Shown here: positions 17,695-45,808 of the stretch, piece after piece
Layout of the letters: every line of letters begins with the position of its first letter
Numbering within the stretch: the first letter of the stretch is position 1
Origin: Escherichia coli
Lineage (GTDB): Bacteria; Pseudomonadota; Gammaproteobacteria; Enterobacterales; Enterobacteriaceae
Direction: 5' to 3' (one strand)
DNA: 64,000 nt
NCBI RefSeq assembly: GCF_048403405.1
Contig: NZ_CP183129.1
Notes under the pieces: model-generated
Database searches by the model: none
The model's input: only the letters and a program-made list of their open reading frames with translations
What the model was told of the DNA's origin: nothing
Position numbers and translations under genes: made by a program

Positions 17695-18102
17695 CTATGT
17701 GTTCATCATCTTGCGCACTAGCTGCATAAACAGCTCCTGCTCTTCTCCACTCAAACGCCCCAAAAATTCCTCATCCACGCTGTCACCTATCGGTATCGCC
17801 GCAGCAAGTATCTTTTCGCCTTCGGCAGTCAGCCAGACAAAGCGTCGCCGCTTGTCAGCGGCGTCATGTTCACGTCTGACTAAGCCACGATTTTCCATTC
17901 TTGCCAACATTTCTGCCAGCGTTGCTTTGGTGCTGACGGCTGCTTCCATCAGTGCCACCTGTTCGATACCAGGTTTATCAGCAATGGCGCGCATCACCGC
18001 GTACTGTGGTTTGGTCAGATCAGGTAACTCGTGCTGCCAGCGGGCCGTGTGTTGCTGAAAAAGCTGTCGTAACTGATGGAACGCTTTATTTCGTAACGCC
18101 AT
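17695..18102 (-). CDS. MarR/SlyA-family transcriptional regulator
   Basis: 135 aa ORF with winged-helix MarR-like sequence; divergent from the ubiX-like gene. Confidence 0.75.
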   Translation of the reverse strand: MALRNKAFHQLRQLFQQHTARWQHELPDLTKPQYAVMRAIADKPGIEQVALMEAAVSTKATLAEMLARMENRGLVRREHDAADKRRRFVWLTAEGEKILAAAIPIGDSVDEEFLGRLSGEEQELFMQLVRKMMNT

Positions 18103-18248
18103 GTAAACTCCGGGCTAATTCTCTGTCGCTATCATAGCGGTTTTTCAGTGACGAAGAAGATGTTGTTACTTTTCAATCCTTGCCGCTGTGGAAATGAAGG
18201 AGTATGTTAATAATAACGTTCGTATACGAACAATTAAGAGAGTAAGCA

Positions 18249-18842
18249 ATGAAACTGATCGTCGGGATGACAGGGGCTACCGGTGCGCCTCTTGGTGTGG
18301 CATTACTGCAAGCGCTGCGGGAGATGCCGAATGTCGAGACTCATCTGGTGATGTCGAAGTGGGCGAAAACCACTATTGAACTGGAAACGCCTTACAGCGC
18401 TCGCGATGTTGCCGCCCTCGCAGACTTCAGCCATAACCCGGCGGATCAGGCGGCGACTATCTCTTCCGGCTCCTTTCGTACCGACGGCATGATCGTTATT
18501 CCATGCAGTATGAAAACGCTCGCCGGTATCCGCGCTGGTTACGCCGATGGCCTGGTGGGGCGCGCGGCGGACGTCGTGCTCAAAGAAGGCCGCAAACTGG
18601 TGCTGGTGCCGCGTGAAATGCCGCTTAGCACAATCCATCTCGAAAATATGCTCGCACTTTCGCGCATGGGCGTGGCGATGGTGCCGCCGATGCCTGCCTT
18701 TTATAACCATCCCGAAACGGTAGATGACATTGTCCACCACGTGGTAGCCCGCGTGCTGGATCAATTTGGCCTCGAACATCCTCACGCCAGGCGCTGGCAA
18801 GGATTGCCGCAGGCCCGGAATTTTTCTCAGGAGAATGAATAA
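18249..18842 (+). CDS. ecdB: UbiX-like flavin prenyltransferase (decarboxylase partner)
   Basis: 197 aa ORF starting MKLIVGMTGATGAPLG (flavoprotein fold); stop overlaps the next start. Symbol is from memory of O157:H7 annotation. Confidence 0.8.
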   Translation: MKLIVGMTGATGAPLGVALLQALREMPNVETHLVMSKWAKTTIELETPYSARDVAALADFSHNPADQAATISSGSFRTDGMIVIPCSMKTLAGIRAGYADGLVGRAADVVLKEGRKLVLVPREMPLSTIHLENMLALSRMGVAMVPPMPAFYNHPETVDDIVHHVVARVLDQFGLEHPHARRWQGLPQARNFSQENE

Positions 18843-20269
18843 TGGCATTTGATGATTTACGCAGCTTTTTACAGGCGCTTGATGACCACGGCCAGTTACT
18901 GAAAATCAGCGAAGAGGTGAACGCGGAACCGGATCTGGCAGCCGCAGCCAACGCCACCGGGCGTATCGGCGACGGCGCGCCCGCGCTTTGGTTTGATAAT
19001 ATTCGCGGCTTTATCGATGCCCGCGTGGCAATGAACACCATCGGTTCCTGGCAGAACCACGCGATTTCCCTCGGCCTGCCGCCAAACACCCCGGTTAAAA
19101 AACAGATTGATGAGTTTATCCGCCGCTGGGATAACTTCCCCATTACCCCGGAGCGCCGCGCCAATCCAGCCTGGGCGCAGAACACCGTCGATGGCGACGA
19201 GATCAACCTGTTCGATATTCTGCCGCTGTTTCGTTTAAACGACGGTGATGGCGGTTTCTATCTCGATAAAGCGTGCGTGGTTTCCCGCGATCCGCTCGAC
19301 CCGGATAACTTCGGCAAGCAGAACGTCGGCATCTACCGCATGGAAGTGAAGGGCAAACGTAAGCTCGGCCTGCAACCGGTGCCGATGCACGATATCGCTC
19401 TGCATCTGCATAAAGCGGAAGAACGCGGTGAAGATCTGCCGATTGCCATCACCCTGGGTAACGATCCGAACATCACCCTGATGGGCGCCACGCCGCTGAA
19501 ATACGATCAGTCTGAGTACGAAATGGCGGGCGCGCTGCGCGAAAGCCCGTACCCGATCGCCACCGCCCCGCTGACCGGTTTTGATGTGCCGTGGGGCTCG
19601 GAAGTGATCCTCGAAGGGGTTATCGAAAGTCGTAAACGTGAGATTGAAGGGCCGTTCGGTGAGTTTACCGGCCACTACTCCGGCGGGCGTAACATGACCG
19701 TGGTGCGTATCGATAAAGTCTCTTACCGTACCAAACCGATTTTCGAATCGCTCTATCTTGGTATGCCGTGGACCGAAATCGACTACCTGATGGGGCCTGC
19801 CACCTGCGTGCCGCTGTATCAGCAACTGAAAGCCGAGTTCCCGGAAGTGCAGGCGGTAAACGCCATGTACACCCACGGCCTGTTGGCGATTATCTCCACC
19901 AAAAAACGCTACGGCGGCTTTGCCCGCGCGGTGGGCCTGCGTGCAATGACCACGCCGCACGGTCTGGGCTACGTGAAGATGGTGATTATGGTCGATGAAG
20001 ACGTTGATCCGTTCAACCTGCCGCAGGTGATGTGGGCGCTCTCCTCGAAAGTGAACCCGGCAGGCGACCTGGTGCAGTTGCCAAATATGTCCGTGCTGGA
20101 ACTCGACCCTGGCTCAAGCCCGGCGGGGATCACCGACAAGCTGATTATCGACGCCACCACGCCTGTCGCCCCGGACAACCGTGGTCACTACAGCCAGCCG
20201 GTGGTGGATTTACCGGAAACCAAAGCCTGGGCTGAAAAACTGACCGCTATGCTGGCCGCACGTAAATAA
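18842..20269 (+). CDS. ecdC: UbiD-family hydroxyarylic acid decarboxylase, large subunit
   Basis: 475 aa ORF of UbiD-like length, coupled to the ubiX-like gene. Confidence 0.8.
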   Translation: MAFDDLRSFLQALDDHGQLLKISEEVNAEPDLAAAANATGRIGDGAPALWFDNIRGFIDARVAMNTIGSWQNHAISLGLPPNTPVKKQIDEFIRRWDNFPITPERRANPAWAQNTVDGDEINLFDILPLFRLNDGDGGFYLDKACVVSRDPLDPDNFGKQNVGIYRMEVKGKRKLGLQPVPMHDIALHLHKAEERGEDLPIAITLGNDPNITLMGATPLKYDQSEYEMAGALRESPYPIATAPLTGFDVPWGSEVILEGVIESRKREIEGPFGEFTGHYSGGRNMTVVRIDKVSYRTKPIFESLYLGMPWTEIDYLMGPATCVPLYQQLKAEFPEVQAVNAMYTHGLLAIISTKKRYGGFARAVGLRAMTTPHGLGYVKMVIMVDEDVDPFNLPQVMWALSSKVNPAGDLVQLPNMSVLELDPGSSPAGITDKLIIDATTPVAPDNRGHYSQPVVDLPETKAWAEKLTAMLAARK

Positions 20270-20279
20270 GGAGAACAAG

Positions 20280-20516
20280 ATGATTTGTCCACGTTGTGCT
20301 GATGAACAGATTGAAGTGATGGCGAAATCGCCGGTAAAAGATGTCTGGACAGTCTATCAGTGCCAGCATTGCCTCTATACCTGGCGCGATACCGAACCGC
20401 TTCGCCGCACCAGCCGCGAACATTACCCGGAAGCGTTTCGTATGACGCAGAAAGACATTGATGACGCGCCAATGGTGCCGAGCATTCCGCCGCTGCTGGC
20501 GGAAGGTAAGCGCTAA
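20280..20516 (+). CDS. ecdD: Decarboxylase small subunit (EcdD/VdcD-like) with zinc-ribbon-like cysteines
   Basis: 78 aa ORF with CPRC...CQHC cysteine pairs, immediately after the UbiD-like gene. Confidence 0.65.
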   Translation: MICPRCADEQIEVMAKSPVKDVWTVYQCQHCLYTWRDTEPLRRTSREHYPEAFRMTQKDIDDAPMVPSIPPLLAEGKR

Positions 20517-29928: not shown

Positions 29929-30214
29929 GGGGTTATGTCCGGTTCCCTGATATTAAATGGGGTGTGATGGTTTTTATTTTCGTTGTAATCACATAAGGCG
30001 CACATGATACCGGAGTTAATCATTTCAGGGGAAGAAGCGAACGGCGAGTTCTTGATGCTGGTTCCGGGAAAGATGCTGTTTTGCAGCTTTTGCGTGATGC
30101 TTATGAAGCAAGTACGCAAAATTGTATCGGTTGGCTAACCCTTCTTCTTTAGAGTCATAGTGCCCTTTAAGATTAAGTTGTAATATAAATGCATCTTAAT
30201 GAGATGGAGGCAGC

Positions 30215-30559
30215 ATGTCCGGCAAGCGTATCTCTCGTGAAAAACTGACGATTAAAAAAATGATCGATCTTTATCAAGCGAAATGCCCGCAGGCGTCAGC
30301 GGAGCCGGAGCATTATGAGGCGTTGTTTACTTACGCGCAAAAGCGGCTGGATAAATGTGTGTTCGGCGAAGAGAAACCAGCCTGTAAGCAGTGTCCGGTG
30401 CACTGTTACCAGCCTGCAAAGCGTGAAGAGATGAAACAGATTATGCGTTGGGCTGGGCCGCGAATGCTGTGGCGTCATCCGATCTTAACCGTGCGTCATC
30501 TCATCGATGACAAGCGTCCGGTGCCGGAGTTGCCAGAAAAATATCGTCCAAAGAAATAA
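30215..30559 (+). CDS. ygbA: Uncharacterized protein YgbA
   Basis: 114 aa cysteine-containing ORF with GGAGG RBS, divergent from mutS as in K-12. Confidence 0.7.
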   Translation: MSGKRISREKLTIKKMIDLYQAKCPQASAEPEHYEALFTYAQKRLDKCVFGEEKPACKQCPVHCYQPAKREEMKQIMRWAGPRMLWRHPILTVRHLIDDKRPVPELPEKYRPKK

Positions 30560-30563
30560 ATCT

Positions 30564-30586
30564 GCCGGAGAGCCATACTCTCCGGC
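30564..30586. terminator. Hairpin between convergent ygbA and the molbindin gene
   Basis: GCCGGAGAG / CTCTCCGGC stem with A/T-rich flanks on both sides. Confidence 0.45.
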
Positions 30587-30597
30587 AAATAAGGCGC

Positions 30598-31026
30598 TTA
30601 CGCTTTGGTGGCAATCAGGATGGCTGATGCTTTGATCAATGCAATAACGCGCGAGCCAGTGGTGAGTTTCATTTCATCCTGACTTTCATTTGTTACCACT
30701 GCCACAATTTCAAAACCCGCATCCGTTTTGATATGGACAGTGGCGTTCACTGCGCCTTCGGTGATTGTCGACACGCTGCCAGCAAACTGGTTGCGAGCAG
30801 AGAATTTCAGTCCACAGTCTTCCGTTGCCAGCGTTACCCACGGGGCTTTAATCAGGGCAATCGCTTCTTTCCCTTTCGCCAGACCCAGCGCTTGCTGGCT
30901 GCTGTGAGTCACAATTGCCACCAGCTTTGCACCACCTGCCAGCGTCAGTTCTACTTCATCATTCACAGCGCCCATTGCTACTGCGCTAACTGTTCCGGTT
31001 AATTGATTTCTTGCTGAAACTGCCAT
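30598..31026 (-). CDS. Molybdopterin/molybdate-binding protein with two TOBE (Mop) domains
   Basis: Track ORF trimmed to ATG at 31026, which has AGGAGG 4 nt upstream; 142 aa with two repeated ~70-aa halves (SARNQLTGTVS / SARNQFAGSVS). Confidence 0.75.
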   Translation of the reverse strand: MAVSARNQLTGTVSAVAMGAVNDEVELTLAGGAKLVAIVTHSSQQALGLAKGKEAIALIKAPWVTLATEDCGLKFSARNQFAGSVSTITEGAVNATVHIKTDAGFEIVAVVTNESQDEMKLTTGSRVIALIKASAILIATKA

Positions 31027-31070
31027 ACTGCCTCCTTTCATTGAATGTTGATCGAGTATAACCACATCTG

Positions 31071-33149
31071 TTAAATCAATGCCGATTTATCAATTCCCAG
31101 TCGCTTCATCCGTGACAGCAGAGTCGTGCGTTTCAGCCCCAGACGTTGCGCAGCGCCTTTAGGCCCGGCAACCACGCCGTTAGTTTCTTTCAGCACGCGA
31201 ACAATCAACTGATATTCATCTTCGCCCTCCTGGGCGACAACCGTTGCGGCAGGCGGCGTTTCAGGCTCCGGTAAAGCAATATCTGGCAATGACAGCTGCA
31301 GCACGTTGCCGCGTGTTAGCAATACCGCGCGCTCGATGACGTTTTCCAGCTCACGCACGTTGCCCGGCCATTCCATGTTGCTCAGGATGCGCAGCGTCTC
31401 GGCAGGAATGCTGTCGATATTGCGCCCCAGACGACGGGCAATTTTGAAGGTAAAGGCTTTCGCCAGCAGCGGAATATCTTCCGGACGCTCGCGTAGTGGC
31501 GGCAGGTGGATCGGGAATACATTCAGGCGGTAATAGAGATCGCTACGGAACTCACGGTCGGCGACCATTTTTTTCAGATCGCGGTTAGTCGCGGCAATTA
31601 AACGCACGTCCGTCTGAATGATTTTGTTGCTGCCGAGACGTTCAAACTCCTGTTCCTGTAATACACGCAGCAACTTCGGCTGTAACTCCAGTGGCATATC
31701 GCCCACTTCGTCGAGGAACAGGGAGCTTTTATCCGCCAGTTCAAAACGACCAATGCGCTGGGCGCTGGCACCGGTAAAAGCCCCACGCTCATGACCAAAC
31801 AGATCGCTCTCCAGCAATCCGGCAGGCATCGCCGCGCAGTTCATTTTTACCATGCGGCGATTATTACGCCCACTGAGATTATGGATCGCGCGGGCAATCA
31901 GCTCTTTACCCGTGCCAGTTTCACCGAGGATCAGCACGGTACTGTCACTTTGCGCCACCATTTCAACTTGTTTAAGCACGCTGTACATGGCTTCGCTGCG
32001 GCCAATAATCTCGCCAAATTCACTATCAACATTGTTGAGCTGCTCGGTCAGGGCGAGGTTTTCATCAACCAGCCGTTCTTTCAGACGATGGATTTCCTGA
32101 TAGGCGAGGGCGTTATCGACAGCGATTGCCACACGTTCGGCAATCTGGCGCAGTAAATTCAGATTGGTAGTGGTAAACACTTTCTCTTCGCATTGCGCCA
32201 GTTTCAGCACGCCCAGCATGGTGTCGCCAGACATCAGCGGTAACAGGCACAAGGTTTGAATCTGGTTGCCCCAGGTGTCGAACAACATGCGTTCATAGGG
32301 GGCTAAATCGTCCCGCTCGTGGAGATTAATCAGCAGCATCTCTTTGCTTTTGAACACGCGTTCGGTGAGGGTTCCGGCTTCATCGACTTCGCTCTGTTCG
32401 TGGGCGGGATGCTGTTTATCAAGATAGTGAGTGGAGTAGATGTTGAGTTTGTTTTTACGGTGGCTGCGTAAGACGATGCTGATATCGTCAATGTCGAAGT
32501 AGTAATGGATTTCTTTGGCGACTTCGCTGACCAGTTCGTCCATATCCAGGCGGGAAAGCACCGCGTTGGTAATGGCAACCAGGATGCGGAAGTTATCGCG
32601 CTCCCGGCATAACAACTCATAGTCGACATTGTTAACGACGCGGCTCTGGATTTGTTCGGTGACGACAGAAACGATCTGCGTAAATGTTTGCAGACGATTG
32701 AACTCTTTTTCGCTCCAGGGGCGATCGTCATAACGAATAAATTCACAGCCACCAAAAATATGCCCTTCCGCCGCCAGTGGCATCAGGCAATAGTGACCAA
32801 ATTTGGGGTATAGCCCACCTGCGGCCAGCTGCGGCCAGGTTTCACAAAATTCTTCGTAACTGCAATGCAGCGTATCAGGGCGCGACAAAATGCTGCGTAC
32901 CGGACCGTGTGCCAGAACAGTTTCGTCTTCATATTTAATGGGGGGGTCTTTTTCACGCGATGCGTAATAAGACGCACGTTGAGTCTGCGCTTGCCACAAC
33001 ACAATAGCCGCGTTGTCGGCGAGCGCAGAACGCTTTACCAGTTGCGAAAGAGCCTCACACAGCGAGGCCAGATCGGGCTGCTGCAATAGTGTCCGAGTGA
33101 TGTCGAACAACCCTTGTTGTCCGAGATCACTCATCGGTGTATATGACAT
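31071..33149 (-). CDS. fhlA: Formate hydrogenlyase transcriptional activator (sigma-54 enhancer-binding protein)
   Basis: Track ORF trimmed to ATG at 33149 (MSYTPMSDLGQQGLFDITR); 692 aa; AAA+ motif GETGTGKE and C-terminal HTH. Confidence 0.95.
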   Translation of the reverse strand: MSYTPMSDLGQQGLFDITRTLLQQPDLASLCEALSQLVKRSALADNAAIVLWQAQTQRASYYASREKDPPIKYEDETVLAHGPVRSILSRPDTLHCSYEEFCETWPQLAAGGLYPKFGHYCLMPLAAEGHIFGGCEFIRYDDRPWSEKEFNRLQTFTQIVSVVTEQIQSRVVNNVDYELLCRERDNFRILVAITNAVLSRLDMDELVSEVAKEIHYYFDIDDISIVLRSHRKNKLNIYSTHYLDKQHPAHEQSEVDEAGTLTERVFKSKEMLLINLHERDDLAPYERMLFDTWGNQIQTLCLLPLMSGDTMLGVLKLAQCEEKVFTTTNLNLLRQIAERVAIAVDNALAYQEIHRLKERLVDENLALTEQLNNVDSEFGEIIGRSEAMYSVLKQVEMVAQSDSTVLILGETGTGKELIARAIHNLSGRNNRRMVKMNCAAMPAGLLESDLFGHERGAFTGASAQRIGRFELADKSSLFLDEVGDMPLELQPKLLRVLQEQEFERLGSNKIIQTDVRLIAATNRDLKKMVADREFRSDLYYRLNVFPIHLPPLRERPEDIPLLAKAFTFKIARRLGRNIDSIPAETLRILSNMEWPGNVRELENVIERAVLLTRGNVLQLSLPDIALPEPETPPAATVVAQEGEDEYQLIVRVLKETNGVVAGPKGAAQRLGLKRTTLLSRMKRLGIDKSALI

Positions 33150-36870: not shown

Positions 36871-36886
36871 AGCAATAATTGTGCCA
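36871..36886 (-). promoter_or_regulatory. Sigma-54 promoter (-24/-12) for the hyp operon
   Basis: Minus strand reads TGGCACAATTATTGCT, a perfect TGGCAC-N5-TTGC match, about 30 bp upstream of hypA. Confidence 0.55.
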
Positions 36887-45080: not shown

Positions 45081-45392
45081 ATGCACATCATTTCGAAAGC
45101 GCCATTTGAAGAGTGTGCGCGCAAATATCCTAACGACGCTCTGGCTCTACACTCATTGTATCGGGTTATTAAGGAAACGGATTTTTCTACACCAGAAGAA
45201 ATGCGAACGGCGTTTCCTAACCTCGACAATTTTAAATATCGCAACAAATGGTACGTTCTGGATGTCGGCGGGAACAATCTTAGGGTTATTGCCTACATAA
45301 ACTTTGTTAATAAGCGGTTCTTTGTGAAGCACATAACGAATCACGCAGAGTATGACAAACTGACACGTTACTACAGAGAGAACAAAGAATGA
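45081..45392 (+). CDS. HigB-like type II toxin (RelE/ParE superfamily)
   Basis: 103 aa ORF; resembles remembered HigB (FPNLDNFKY...VLDVGGNNLRVIA); AAGGAAG RBS; stop overlaps antitoxin start (ATGA). Confidence 0.8.
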   Translation: MHIISKAPFEECARKYPNDALALHSLYRVIKETDFSTPEEMRTAFPNLDNFKYRNKWYVLDVGGNNLRVIAYINFVNKRFFVKHITNHAEYDKLTRYYRENKE

Positions 45393-45808
45393 CTGCTAAT
45401 GCTGCACGCGCTGTTAAAGCAACAAGAGAACTGGTCAATGCAGTCCCCTTTCTGGGAGGCAGTGACTCAGAAGATGATTATCGTGAAGCACTGGAACTGG
45501 TCGAATATTTGATTGAAGAAGATGACACCAATCCACTTATCGACTTTCTGGCGAGCCGCATTGCAGAATATGAAAACAACAACGAAAAGTTTGCAGAGTT
45601 CGACAAAGCCGTTGCAGCAATGCCGGTTGGCGTGGCGTTACTTCGTACGCTGATTGATCAACATAATTTGACCTATGCGGATTTGAAGAACGAAATCGGC
45701 TCTAAATCTCTGGTCAGTCAGATTTTGTCTGGGCAACGATCCCTGACGATATCCCATATTAAGGCACTTTCAGCCCGATTTGGCGTTAAGCCGGAATGGT
45801 TTCTTTGA
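45389..45808 (+). CDS. HigA-like antitoxin (HTH)
   Basis: 139 aa ORF coupled to the toxin; C-terminal HTH-like segment (IGSKSLVSQILSGQRSLTISHIKALSARFGV). Confidence 0.8.
   Translation: MTANAARAVKATRELVNAVPFLGGSDSEDDYREALELVEYLIEEDDTNPLIDFLASRIAEYENNNEKFAEFDKAVAAMPVGVALLRTLIDQHNLTYADLKNEIGSKSLVSQILSGQRSLTISHIKALSARFGVKPEWFL

Follow-up and report, generated by a model that had tools for sequence, protein, structure and literature searches.

Molbindins and related proteins

ModG of Azotobacter vinelandii, a cytoplasmic molbindin, consists solely of two tandem Mop/TOBE domains. The modG gene belongs to the mod locus and is tied to the supply of the nitrogenase cofactor; linkage to mod genes or control by ModE is typical of modG, but not strictly defining. 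MopII of Clostridium pasteurianum, Mop of Sporomusa ovata and Tub of Eubacterium limosum, the last being a tungstate store, are molbindins with a single domain per chain. In single-domain molbindins, and similarly in ModG, the oxyanion sites on the threefold axis are formed by the backbone of an Ala-Val-Asn loop, and those at the interfaces by a Ser and an Arg of the N-terminal region, a Ser from the middle of the domain and a Lys-Ala pair (PMC11980592). The ModG/TudG class comprises 5,379 proteins in a census of a human-gut genome catalogue (PMC11980592). TOBE domains of the same superfamily are also present in ModC, WtpC and MalK, which carry an ABC ATPase domain, and a di-Mop region makes up the C-terminal half of ModE from E. 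coli.

Formate dehydrogenase H, which formate hydrogenlyase requires, is a molybdoenzyme. For fdhF and hyc to be expressed maximally, molybdate and ModE are needed in addition to FhlA and formate (PMC3149613). Here we examine a gene, referred to as mop, that encodes a ModG-type protein directly downstream of fhlA in an E. coli genome.

A di-Mop gene follows fhlA

Between positions 10100 and 51300, the window, the whole stretch of 64,000 nucleotides analysed here, matches the chromosome of E. coli TUM14771 with 99.99% identity. The mechanical open reading frame of interest spans 30598..31065 on the minus strand and encodes 155 residues from a GTG. An ATG at 31026 yields a protein of 142 residues (MAVSARNQ...LIATKA) with its TAA stop codon at 30598-30600, and we assign the mop coding region to 30598..31026. 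This start Met is common to all mop orthologues, and the 13-codon extension up to the GTG displays no conservation among them. A Shine-Dalgarno sequence, AGGAGG, is located at 31031..31036 (minus strand), 4 nt before the ATG, in agreement with the strong ribosome-binding site reported in a preliminary description of this DNA, and GGAGG is found at equal spacing in about 40 orthologous loci. The RefSeq annotation mapped onto the window places the stop codon of fhlA at 31071 (feature 31071..33149, minus strand), which leaves a spacer of only 44 nt and agrees with the position directly downstream of fhlA given in that description. On the other side, ygbA (30215..30559, plus strand) is convergent with mop and encodes 114 residues, compared with 117 in K-12. 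Between mutS and ygbA, a further open reading frame of 44 codons (30004-30138, plus strand; RefSeq hypothetical protein WP_000611932.1) is a putative gene that is present in K-12-type genomes as well.

In TUM14771, the product of mop is annotated as WP_000301062.1, 'TOBE domain-containing protein', and a RefSeq annotation of the gene is present in every carrier examined. The gene is thus already annotated, its family is well known, and in this respect it is ordinary. It is also not new to the literature, as a gene between fhlA and ygbA was mentioned as 'modE' by Lerminiaux et al. 2020 (PMC7232297); this is the same gene under a wrong name. In our literature search, we found no paper characterising the enterobacterial mop orthologue in terms of binding, oligomeric state, transcript or phenotype.

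The gene displays strong purifying selection. In 21 orthologous loci ranging from E. albertii to Edwardsiella, mop always has 142 codons and is colinear. Ratios of dN/dS against the window copy could be estimated for 17 loci in all, synonymous sites being saturated in the other 4 of the 21. The values were 0.02-0.09 for 15 Enterobacteriaceae loci and 0.12 for Edwardsiella, the most distant locus. These ratios, the ribosome-binding site of its own and the full-length match to ModG described below led us to reject the possibilities that mop is a pseudogene or a fragment of an ABC transporter gene. We confirmed mop to be a real, intact gene, an observation far beyond chance.

Domain structure and predicted fold of the Mop protein

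Pfam identified the TOBE domain (PF03459) twice, at residues 4-66 (1.6e-17) and 76-137 (6.2e-16), and the NCBIfam model TIGR00638 ('Mop') matched two stretches of the 142-residue protein with 142 bits against a cut-off of 55. No further domain was found with Pfam or NCBIfam. Residues 1-71 and 72-142 share 42% identity, with an alignment score of z = 13 against shuffled sequences. The two tandem Mop/TOBE-like halves recognised in the preliminary description, which had named a search with the PF03459 model as a check, were thus confirmed.

The N-terminal Mop domain (residues 1-71; 30814..31026, minus strand) contains the motifs S4-A-R6-N, G19-A-V-N22, T40-x-x-S43 and K60-A61, as judged from alignments with ModG, ModE and the orthologues. 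The corresponding motifs of the C-terminal domain (residues 72-142; 30601..30813, minus strand), S76-A-R78-N, G91-A-V-N94, T112-x-x-S115 and K132-A133, are all intact. In an alignment of 21 sequences, S4, R6, T40, S43 and K60 are invariant, and S76, R78, V93, N94, T112 and K132 are at least 90% conserved, the exceptions being confined to ModE. With the ligand roles of these motifs taken from the description of Tub and ModG in PMC11980592, the oxyanion-ligand residues (SARN, GAVN, TxxS and KA) occur in both halves of the Mop protein, as they do in both halves of ModG.

The closest solved structure was that of A. vinelandii ModG (1H9J; E 5e-33), with residues 1-140 of the query aligned to residues 4-143 of the chain. 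Over the full length, 68 of 142 residues (48%) are identical between the two proteins, and the di-Mop half of E. coli ModE ranked second among solved structures. An AlphaFold2 model built from the 21-sequence alignment had a mean pLDDT of 96.1 and a pTM of 0.87. The top Foldseek matches of this model were the ModG structures 1H9J, 1H9K and 1H9M (TM 0.94-0.95, rmsd 1.3-1.4 Å), and superposition on 1H9J gave a TM of 0.95 and an rmsd of 1.3 Å over 142 columns. The predicted structure of the Mop protein thus has the di-Mop beta-barrel fold, and all sequence- and fold-level features of the ModG/TudG class (TOBE,TOBE) are present. The two proteins agree in length, in the architecture of two tandem Mop/TOBE domains only, in fold and in the intact motifs of both halves. 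They differ in context. The window gene follows hyp-fhlA in a non-diazotroph, and the enterobacterial protein is known here from its sequence and predicted fold. Its neighbours are fhlA and ygbA rather than mod transport or regulation genes. A distant homologue from Fibrobacteres adjoins modB/modC-like genes.

Each half of the Mop protein also matched the single-domain molbindins MopII (1GUG), Mop (1FR3) and Tub (9BEB), with E values from 2e-9 to 3e-5 and TM scores to the target of 0.84-0.92. These proteins have the same ligand residues and follow the same logic of eight sites per hexamer equivalent (PMC11980592). As two Mop domains are fused in each chain of the window protein, three chains would stand for six.

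Distribution of mop and its absence from K-12

A scan of one genome per species yielded 49 loci with a mop relative. In 36 of these 49 species representatives, FhlA is encoded immediately upstream of mop, with HypE before it. This hypE-fhlA-mop order is found in E. albertii, a cryptic Escherichia lineage, eight Citrobacter, Pseudocitrobacter, Klebsiella/Raoultella, Kluyvera, Enterobacter, Pluralibacter, Yokenella, Lelliottia and Kosakonia, and E. fergusonii-type and Raoultella loci retrieved by exact-protein look-up have it too. Three of the 49 loci (L044, L049 and L056, from Phytobacter/Kosakonia) have hypE directly upstream of mop and lack fhlA; their hypE-mop spacers contain a conserved palindrome, ATACCCAT-N9-ATGGGTAT, approximately 60-100 nt upstream of mop. 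Two genomes (L023 and L039) have kept mop without hyc-hyp-fhlA upstream, and in Serratia, Cedecea and Edwardsiella the gene stands alone in unrelated contexts.

Some Salmonella serovars harbour an 87-89% identical copy in islands away from fhlA. In Salmonella enterica (L003, L004 and L009-L011), these islands include IS21/IS66 fragments and fimbrial usher/chaperone genes, and one island type with mop also holds a YedY-like molybdoenzyme pair. Di-Mop copies with 75-79% identity are present alone on large Klebsiella and Enterobacter plasmids. The copy on the K. pneumoniae plasmid pCAV1344-250 (L062, locus 7001-7429) lies beside an IS3 transposase gene. About ten further enterobacterial plasmids (Klebsiella, Enterobacter and Pantoea), large conjugative IncF plasmids, also carry di-Mop genes. 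Two 4.9-Mb 'plasmid' records in PLSDB with a 100% identical copy of mop look like mislabelled E. coli chromosomes.

The divergence of mop tracks that of its neighbour genes. In the E. fergusonii-type loci L005 and L006, identity to the window falls from 94.9% over hypA-E (locus 6-3735) to 79.2% over fhlA-mop-ygbA (3840-6857), and this drop at the hypE/fhlA boundary indicates a recombination mosaic reaching into fhlA. As the fhlA-mop arrangement recurs across Escherichia lineages and other genera, its presence is ancestral, and K-12 carries a deletion. By comparison of gene order, mop is shown to be ancestral to Enterobacteriaceae at the position adjacent to fhlA. The preliminary description had taken mop to be wedged between ygbA and fhlA, a view which the 36 species representatives with this arrangement and the deletion carried by K-12 do not bear out.

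Within E. coli, mop was found in 1892 of 5426 complete genomes, always as a single copy and always on the chromosome, and in 1889 of these the copy extends over at least 80% of the gene. The gene is not universal, and K-12 has no gene at this position, in line with the preliminary description. All 60 sampled E. coli records with mop have the gene annotated, and 59 contain an intact coding region. The weakest match of the 60 (H90, FDAARGOS_1285) is a truncated partial pseudogene. In this strain (L066; NZ_CP070152.1, locus 2288-3126), an IS1 element joins nlpD to the middle of mop. The strain lacks rpoS, mutS and the variable region between them, together with ygbA and the C-terminal part of mop, and would accordingly be expected to be an rpoS-null mutator. 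APEC O18 is among the carriers, some of which we take to be ST131, and K-12 and two large-genome cattle isolates are among the strains without mop. A published comparison of the locus lists IAI39 as mop-positive and K-12 and O157:H7 as alike there (PMC7232297).

K-12 has approximately 470 bp fewer than the window between fhlA and ygbA. The missing part extends cleanly from the fhlA stop codon to a retained terminator hairpin, which is all that remains between that stop codon and ygbA, and mop is absent from this junction. In Citrobacter amalonaticus, a hairpin similar to the retained one follows mop. The junction of GTCCGGCAATTTGCAG with TTAAATCAATGCC was identical in 4 of the 4 mop-less genomes read (K-12, strain 124, EC11 and 20.1). 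The sampled mop-less records have the same span of 735 bp, apart from one alignment of 733 bp (L065) with the same junction. This last genome, from the bovine E. coli strain 20.1 (NZ_AP027170.1), has fhlA annotated as a frameshifted pseudogene. Judging from these junctions, one deletion allele of approximately 470 bp accounts for the absence of mop in most E. coli, including the K-12 lineage.

Expression of mop

A perfect match to the sigma-54 -24/-12 consensus, TGGCACAATTATTGCT, is located upstream of hypA (36871..36886, minus strand) and is presumed to be the promoter of hypABCDE-fhlA(-mop). Directly after mop, we found an intrinsic terminator (30550..30590, minus strand) with a 14-pair stem, a GC-rich core and the tail TTATTTCTTT; the hairpin is common to the convergent ygbA. 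Following the minus strand from the hyp promoter, this hairpin with its T-rich tail (30590-30560) is the first site that resembles a terminator, and no other was found before it. Since transcription would meet no terminator before this hairpin and the spacer is only 44 nt, read-through from hyp-fhlA is the simplest expectation. The mop gene would then come last in the hypABCDE-fhlA transcription unit, and is probably expressed by read-through from this operon. In Lelliottia, a terminator-like hairpin followed by GTTATAAAT lies between fhlA and mop, so co-transcription of the two genes is not universal.

The spacer contains a conserved element, GGTTATACT (31055..31063, minus strand), whose TATACT is a possible -10 sequence of a mop-specific promoter. 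The element is conserved in the fhlA-mop spacers of Escherichia, Citrobacter, Kluyvera and Pluralibacter. Elements of this type are also present upstream of mop in the Salmonella islands and Edwardsiella, where there is no fhlA upstream. Taking into account that the element travels with mop in the absence of fhlA and that GTTATAAAT follows the hairpin in Lelliottia, a mop-specific promoter is possible, and TATACT may be its -10 sequence. In its general form GGYTATA(C/T/A), the element is conserved across genera, with its position at -37 from the mop ATG in L003 and L009 and at -49 in L059, and could be either a promoter -10 or a half-operator. A consensus scan detected no sigma-70 promoter in the fhlA-mop spacer, and by eye there is no acceptable -35 sequence 16-18 nt from TATACT. 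The E. coli ModE operator consensus CGnTATATA-N6-TATATAnCG (PMC545781) had no match anywhere in the window, even with 3 mismatches allowed. We rejected GGTTATACT as a full ModE box, as by eye only the left half-site matched. A sigma-54 match at 30916-30931 has one mismatch, is on the plus strand and lies inside the mop coding region. As the five sigma-54-like sites found in the window are at chance level (4.1 expected), this internal site was disregarded.

Alternative explanations for the gene

Some JGI annotations call the product of mop a 'molybdate transport system regulatory protein', and the name 'modE' was used in the 2020 paper on the SPI-1 locus (PMC7232297). The protein might thus be the transcriptional regulator ModE, with whose C-terminal di-Mop half (1H9S, 1O7L and 1B9M) it indeed shares its fold (TM 0.85-0.90), 37% sequence identity and the motifs of the N-terminal Mop domain. 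The two TOBE domains, however, fill all 142 residues. The ModE equivalog model NF007957 scored 88 bits against a cut-off of 369 and was matched only at positions 124-261 of 263, and therefore there is no N-terminal DNA-binding domain in the Mop protein. Moreover, the second Mop domain is degenerate in E. coli ModE (NADN, GAEQ and NAD), whereas its ligand motifs are intact in the window protein, as in ModG. Since both halves keep their motifs, the protein is of the ModG type and not of the ModE type. Lacking the N-terminal winged-helix DNA-binding domain and starting at the first Mop domain, mop is refuted as a ModE by its domain content, and we regard the chance that it is ModE as practically nil. 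With no DNA-binding domain and a ligand-competent second Mop domain, a ModG-like trimer rather than a ModE dimer would be expected by analogy. We likewise rejected the ATPases ModC and WtpC, because the free-standing Mop protein has its own ribosome-binding site and lacks the ABC ATPase domain that accompanies the TOBE domains of ModC, WtpC and MalK; models of the ModC/WtpC type matched only with their C-terminal ~65 profile positions (26-49 bits against cut-offs of 285-440).

With regard to origin, mop could be a single-gene island that some E. coli acquired recently between fhlA and ygbA. The interval from fhlA to mutS is known as a hotspot of gene gain and loss (PMC7232297), related genes occur on plasmids and in IS-flanked islands, and the GC3 of mop (0.48) is somewhat lower than that of its neighbours (0.55-0.64). 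However, the gene has the same position and orientation in three further lineages of Escherichia and in about ten additional genera, its divergence parallels that of the neighbours, and no mobile-element scars were found at its flanks. In addition, mop-less strains have a single junction in common, and the terminator located after mop in other genomes is still present in them. On the basis of this synteny, we rejected horizontal insertion, which we consider very improbable, in favour of ancestral presence and deletion. With regard to function, an interaction of the Mop molbindin with the ModE-like regulator MopB has been reported in Rhodobacter capsulatus. The window protein might similarly act mainly as a regulator partner, contacting FhlA or ModE in its molybdate-loaded form, or competing with ModE for molybdate, and thereby tune the transcription of hyc, fdhF and mod. 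The adjacency of fhlA and mop in 36 of 49 species representatives and the dependence of formate hydrogenlyase gene expression on molybdate and ModE (PMC3149613) are in line with this possibility. Nevertheless, the molybdate dependence of hyc and fdhF works in mop-less K-12, the protein consists of the two Mop domains alone, and solo copies occur in genomes and on plasmids without fhlA nearby, so that a mainly regulatory role seems quite improbable to us.

Predicted function and formate hydrogenlyase

Taken together, we find it likely that mop, intact and under selection, codes for a ModG-type molbindin which would serve as a molybdate/tungstate buffer and be expressed by read-through from hyp-fhlA, and that the gene is ancestral at this position and was deleted in the K-12 lineage. 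The 48% identity and the near-identical predicted fold to ModG suggest that three Mop chains would assemble into a ModG-like pseudo-hexamer able to hold as many as eight oxyanions of molybdate or tungstate. Of these, two would be bound on the threefold axis through the backbone of the GAVN loops, and six at the domain interfaces through the Ser and Arg of SARN, the Thr and Ser of TxxS and the Lys and Ala of KA. From what is known of the family, the protein would buffer or store cytoplasmic molybdate and sequester tungstate. By analogy to ModG, a trimeric cytoplasmic buffer of molybdate and tungstate is the most likely function.

If mop is expressed with its upstream genes, a molybdate buffer would be made alongside the hydrogenase maturation proteins and FhlA, which would be sensible for a pathway that depends on a molybdoenzyme. 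On the basis of the conserved gene order, a dedicated supply of molybdenum to the formate dehydrogenase H of formate hydrogenlyase can be weakly inferred. An obligatory link is opposed by the genomes that have kept mop without fhlA, and by K-12 and most other E. coli, which run formate hydrogenlyase without mop. The preliminary description had proposed a storage or sensing role for molybdate or tungstate tied to formate hydrogenlyase. Binding of these oxyanions is indeed the activity to be expected from the identity to ModG and the fold, and the tie to formate hydrogenlyase is plausible from gene order, although mop also persists where fhlA is missing and is found alone on plasmids and in islands. 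A more far-reaching possibility, which we hold to be unlikely, is that the Mop protein is a conserved, overlooked accessory of formate hydrogenlyase. Made together with HypA-E and FhlA, it would hold molybdate or trap tungstate for formate dehydrogenase H when molybdate is scarce, and might even feed back on ModE- or FhlA-dependent transcription.

Whichever the case, the view of the locus changes from that of an insertion to that of a gene which ancestrally ended the hyp-fhlA cluster and was deleted in the K-12 lineage. If the link to formate hydrogenlyase were true, work on K-12 would have missed a component of the molybdenum supply to formate dehydrogenase H, and K-12 and most E. coli would be natural deletion mutants for a component kept by most Enterobacteriaceae. 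Roughly one in three sequenced E. coli and most related genera carry the gene in question. Without such a link, mop would simply be another representative of a family that is structurally well understood.

Other genes in the window

Two further gene groups were observed in the window. In the RefSeq annotation of TUM14771, whose corresponding segment is 99.99% identical, genes for a HigB-family toxin and an HTH antitoxin lie between hycI and ascB (45081-45808 of the window); to our knowledge, this pair is not present in K-12. Between rpoS and ygbN (17695-20516), there are genes for a MarR-family regulator and the subunits B, C and D of a non-oxidative hydroxyarylic acid decarboxylase, a segment which is the known strain-variable part of the mutS-rpoS region.
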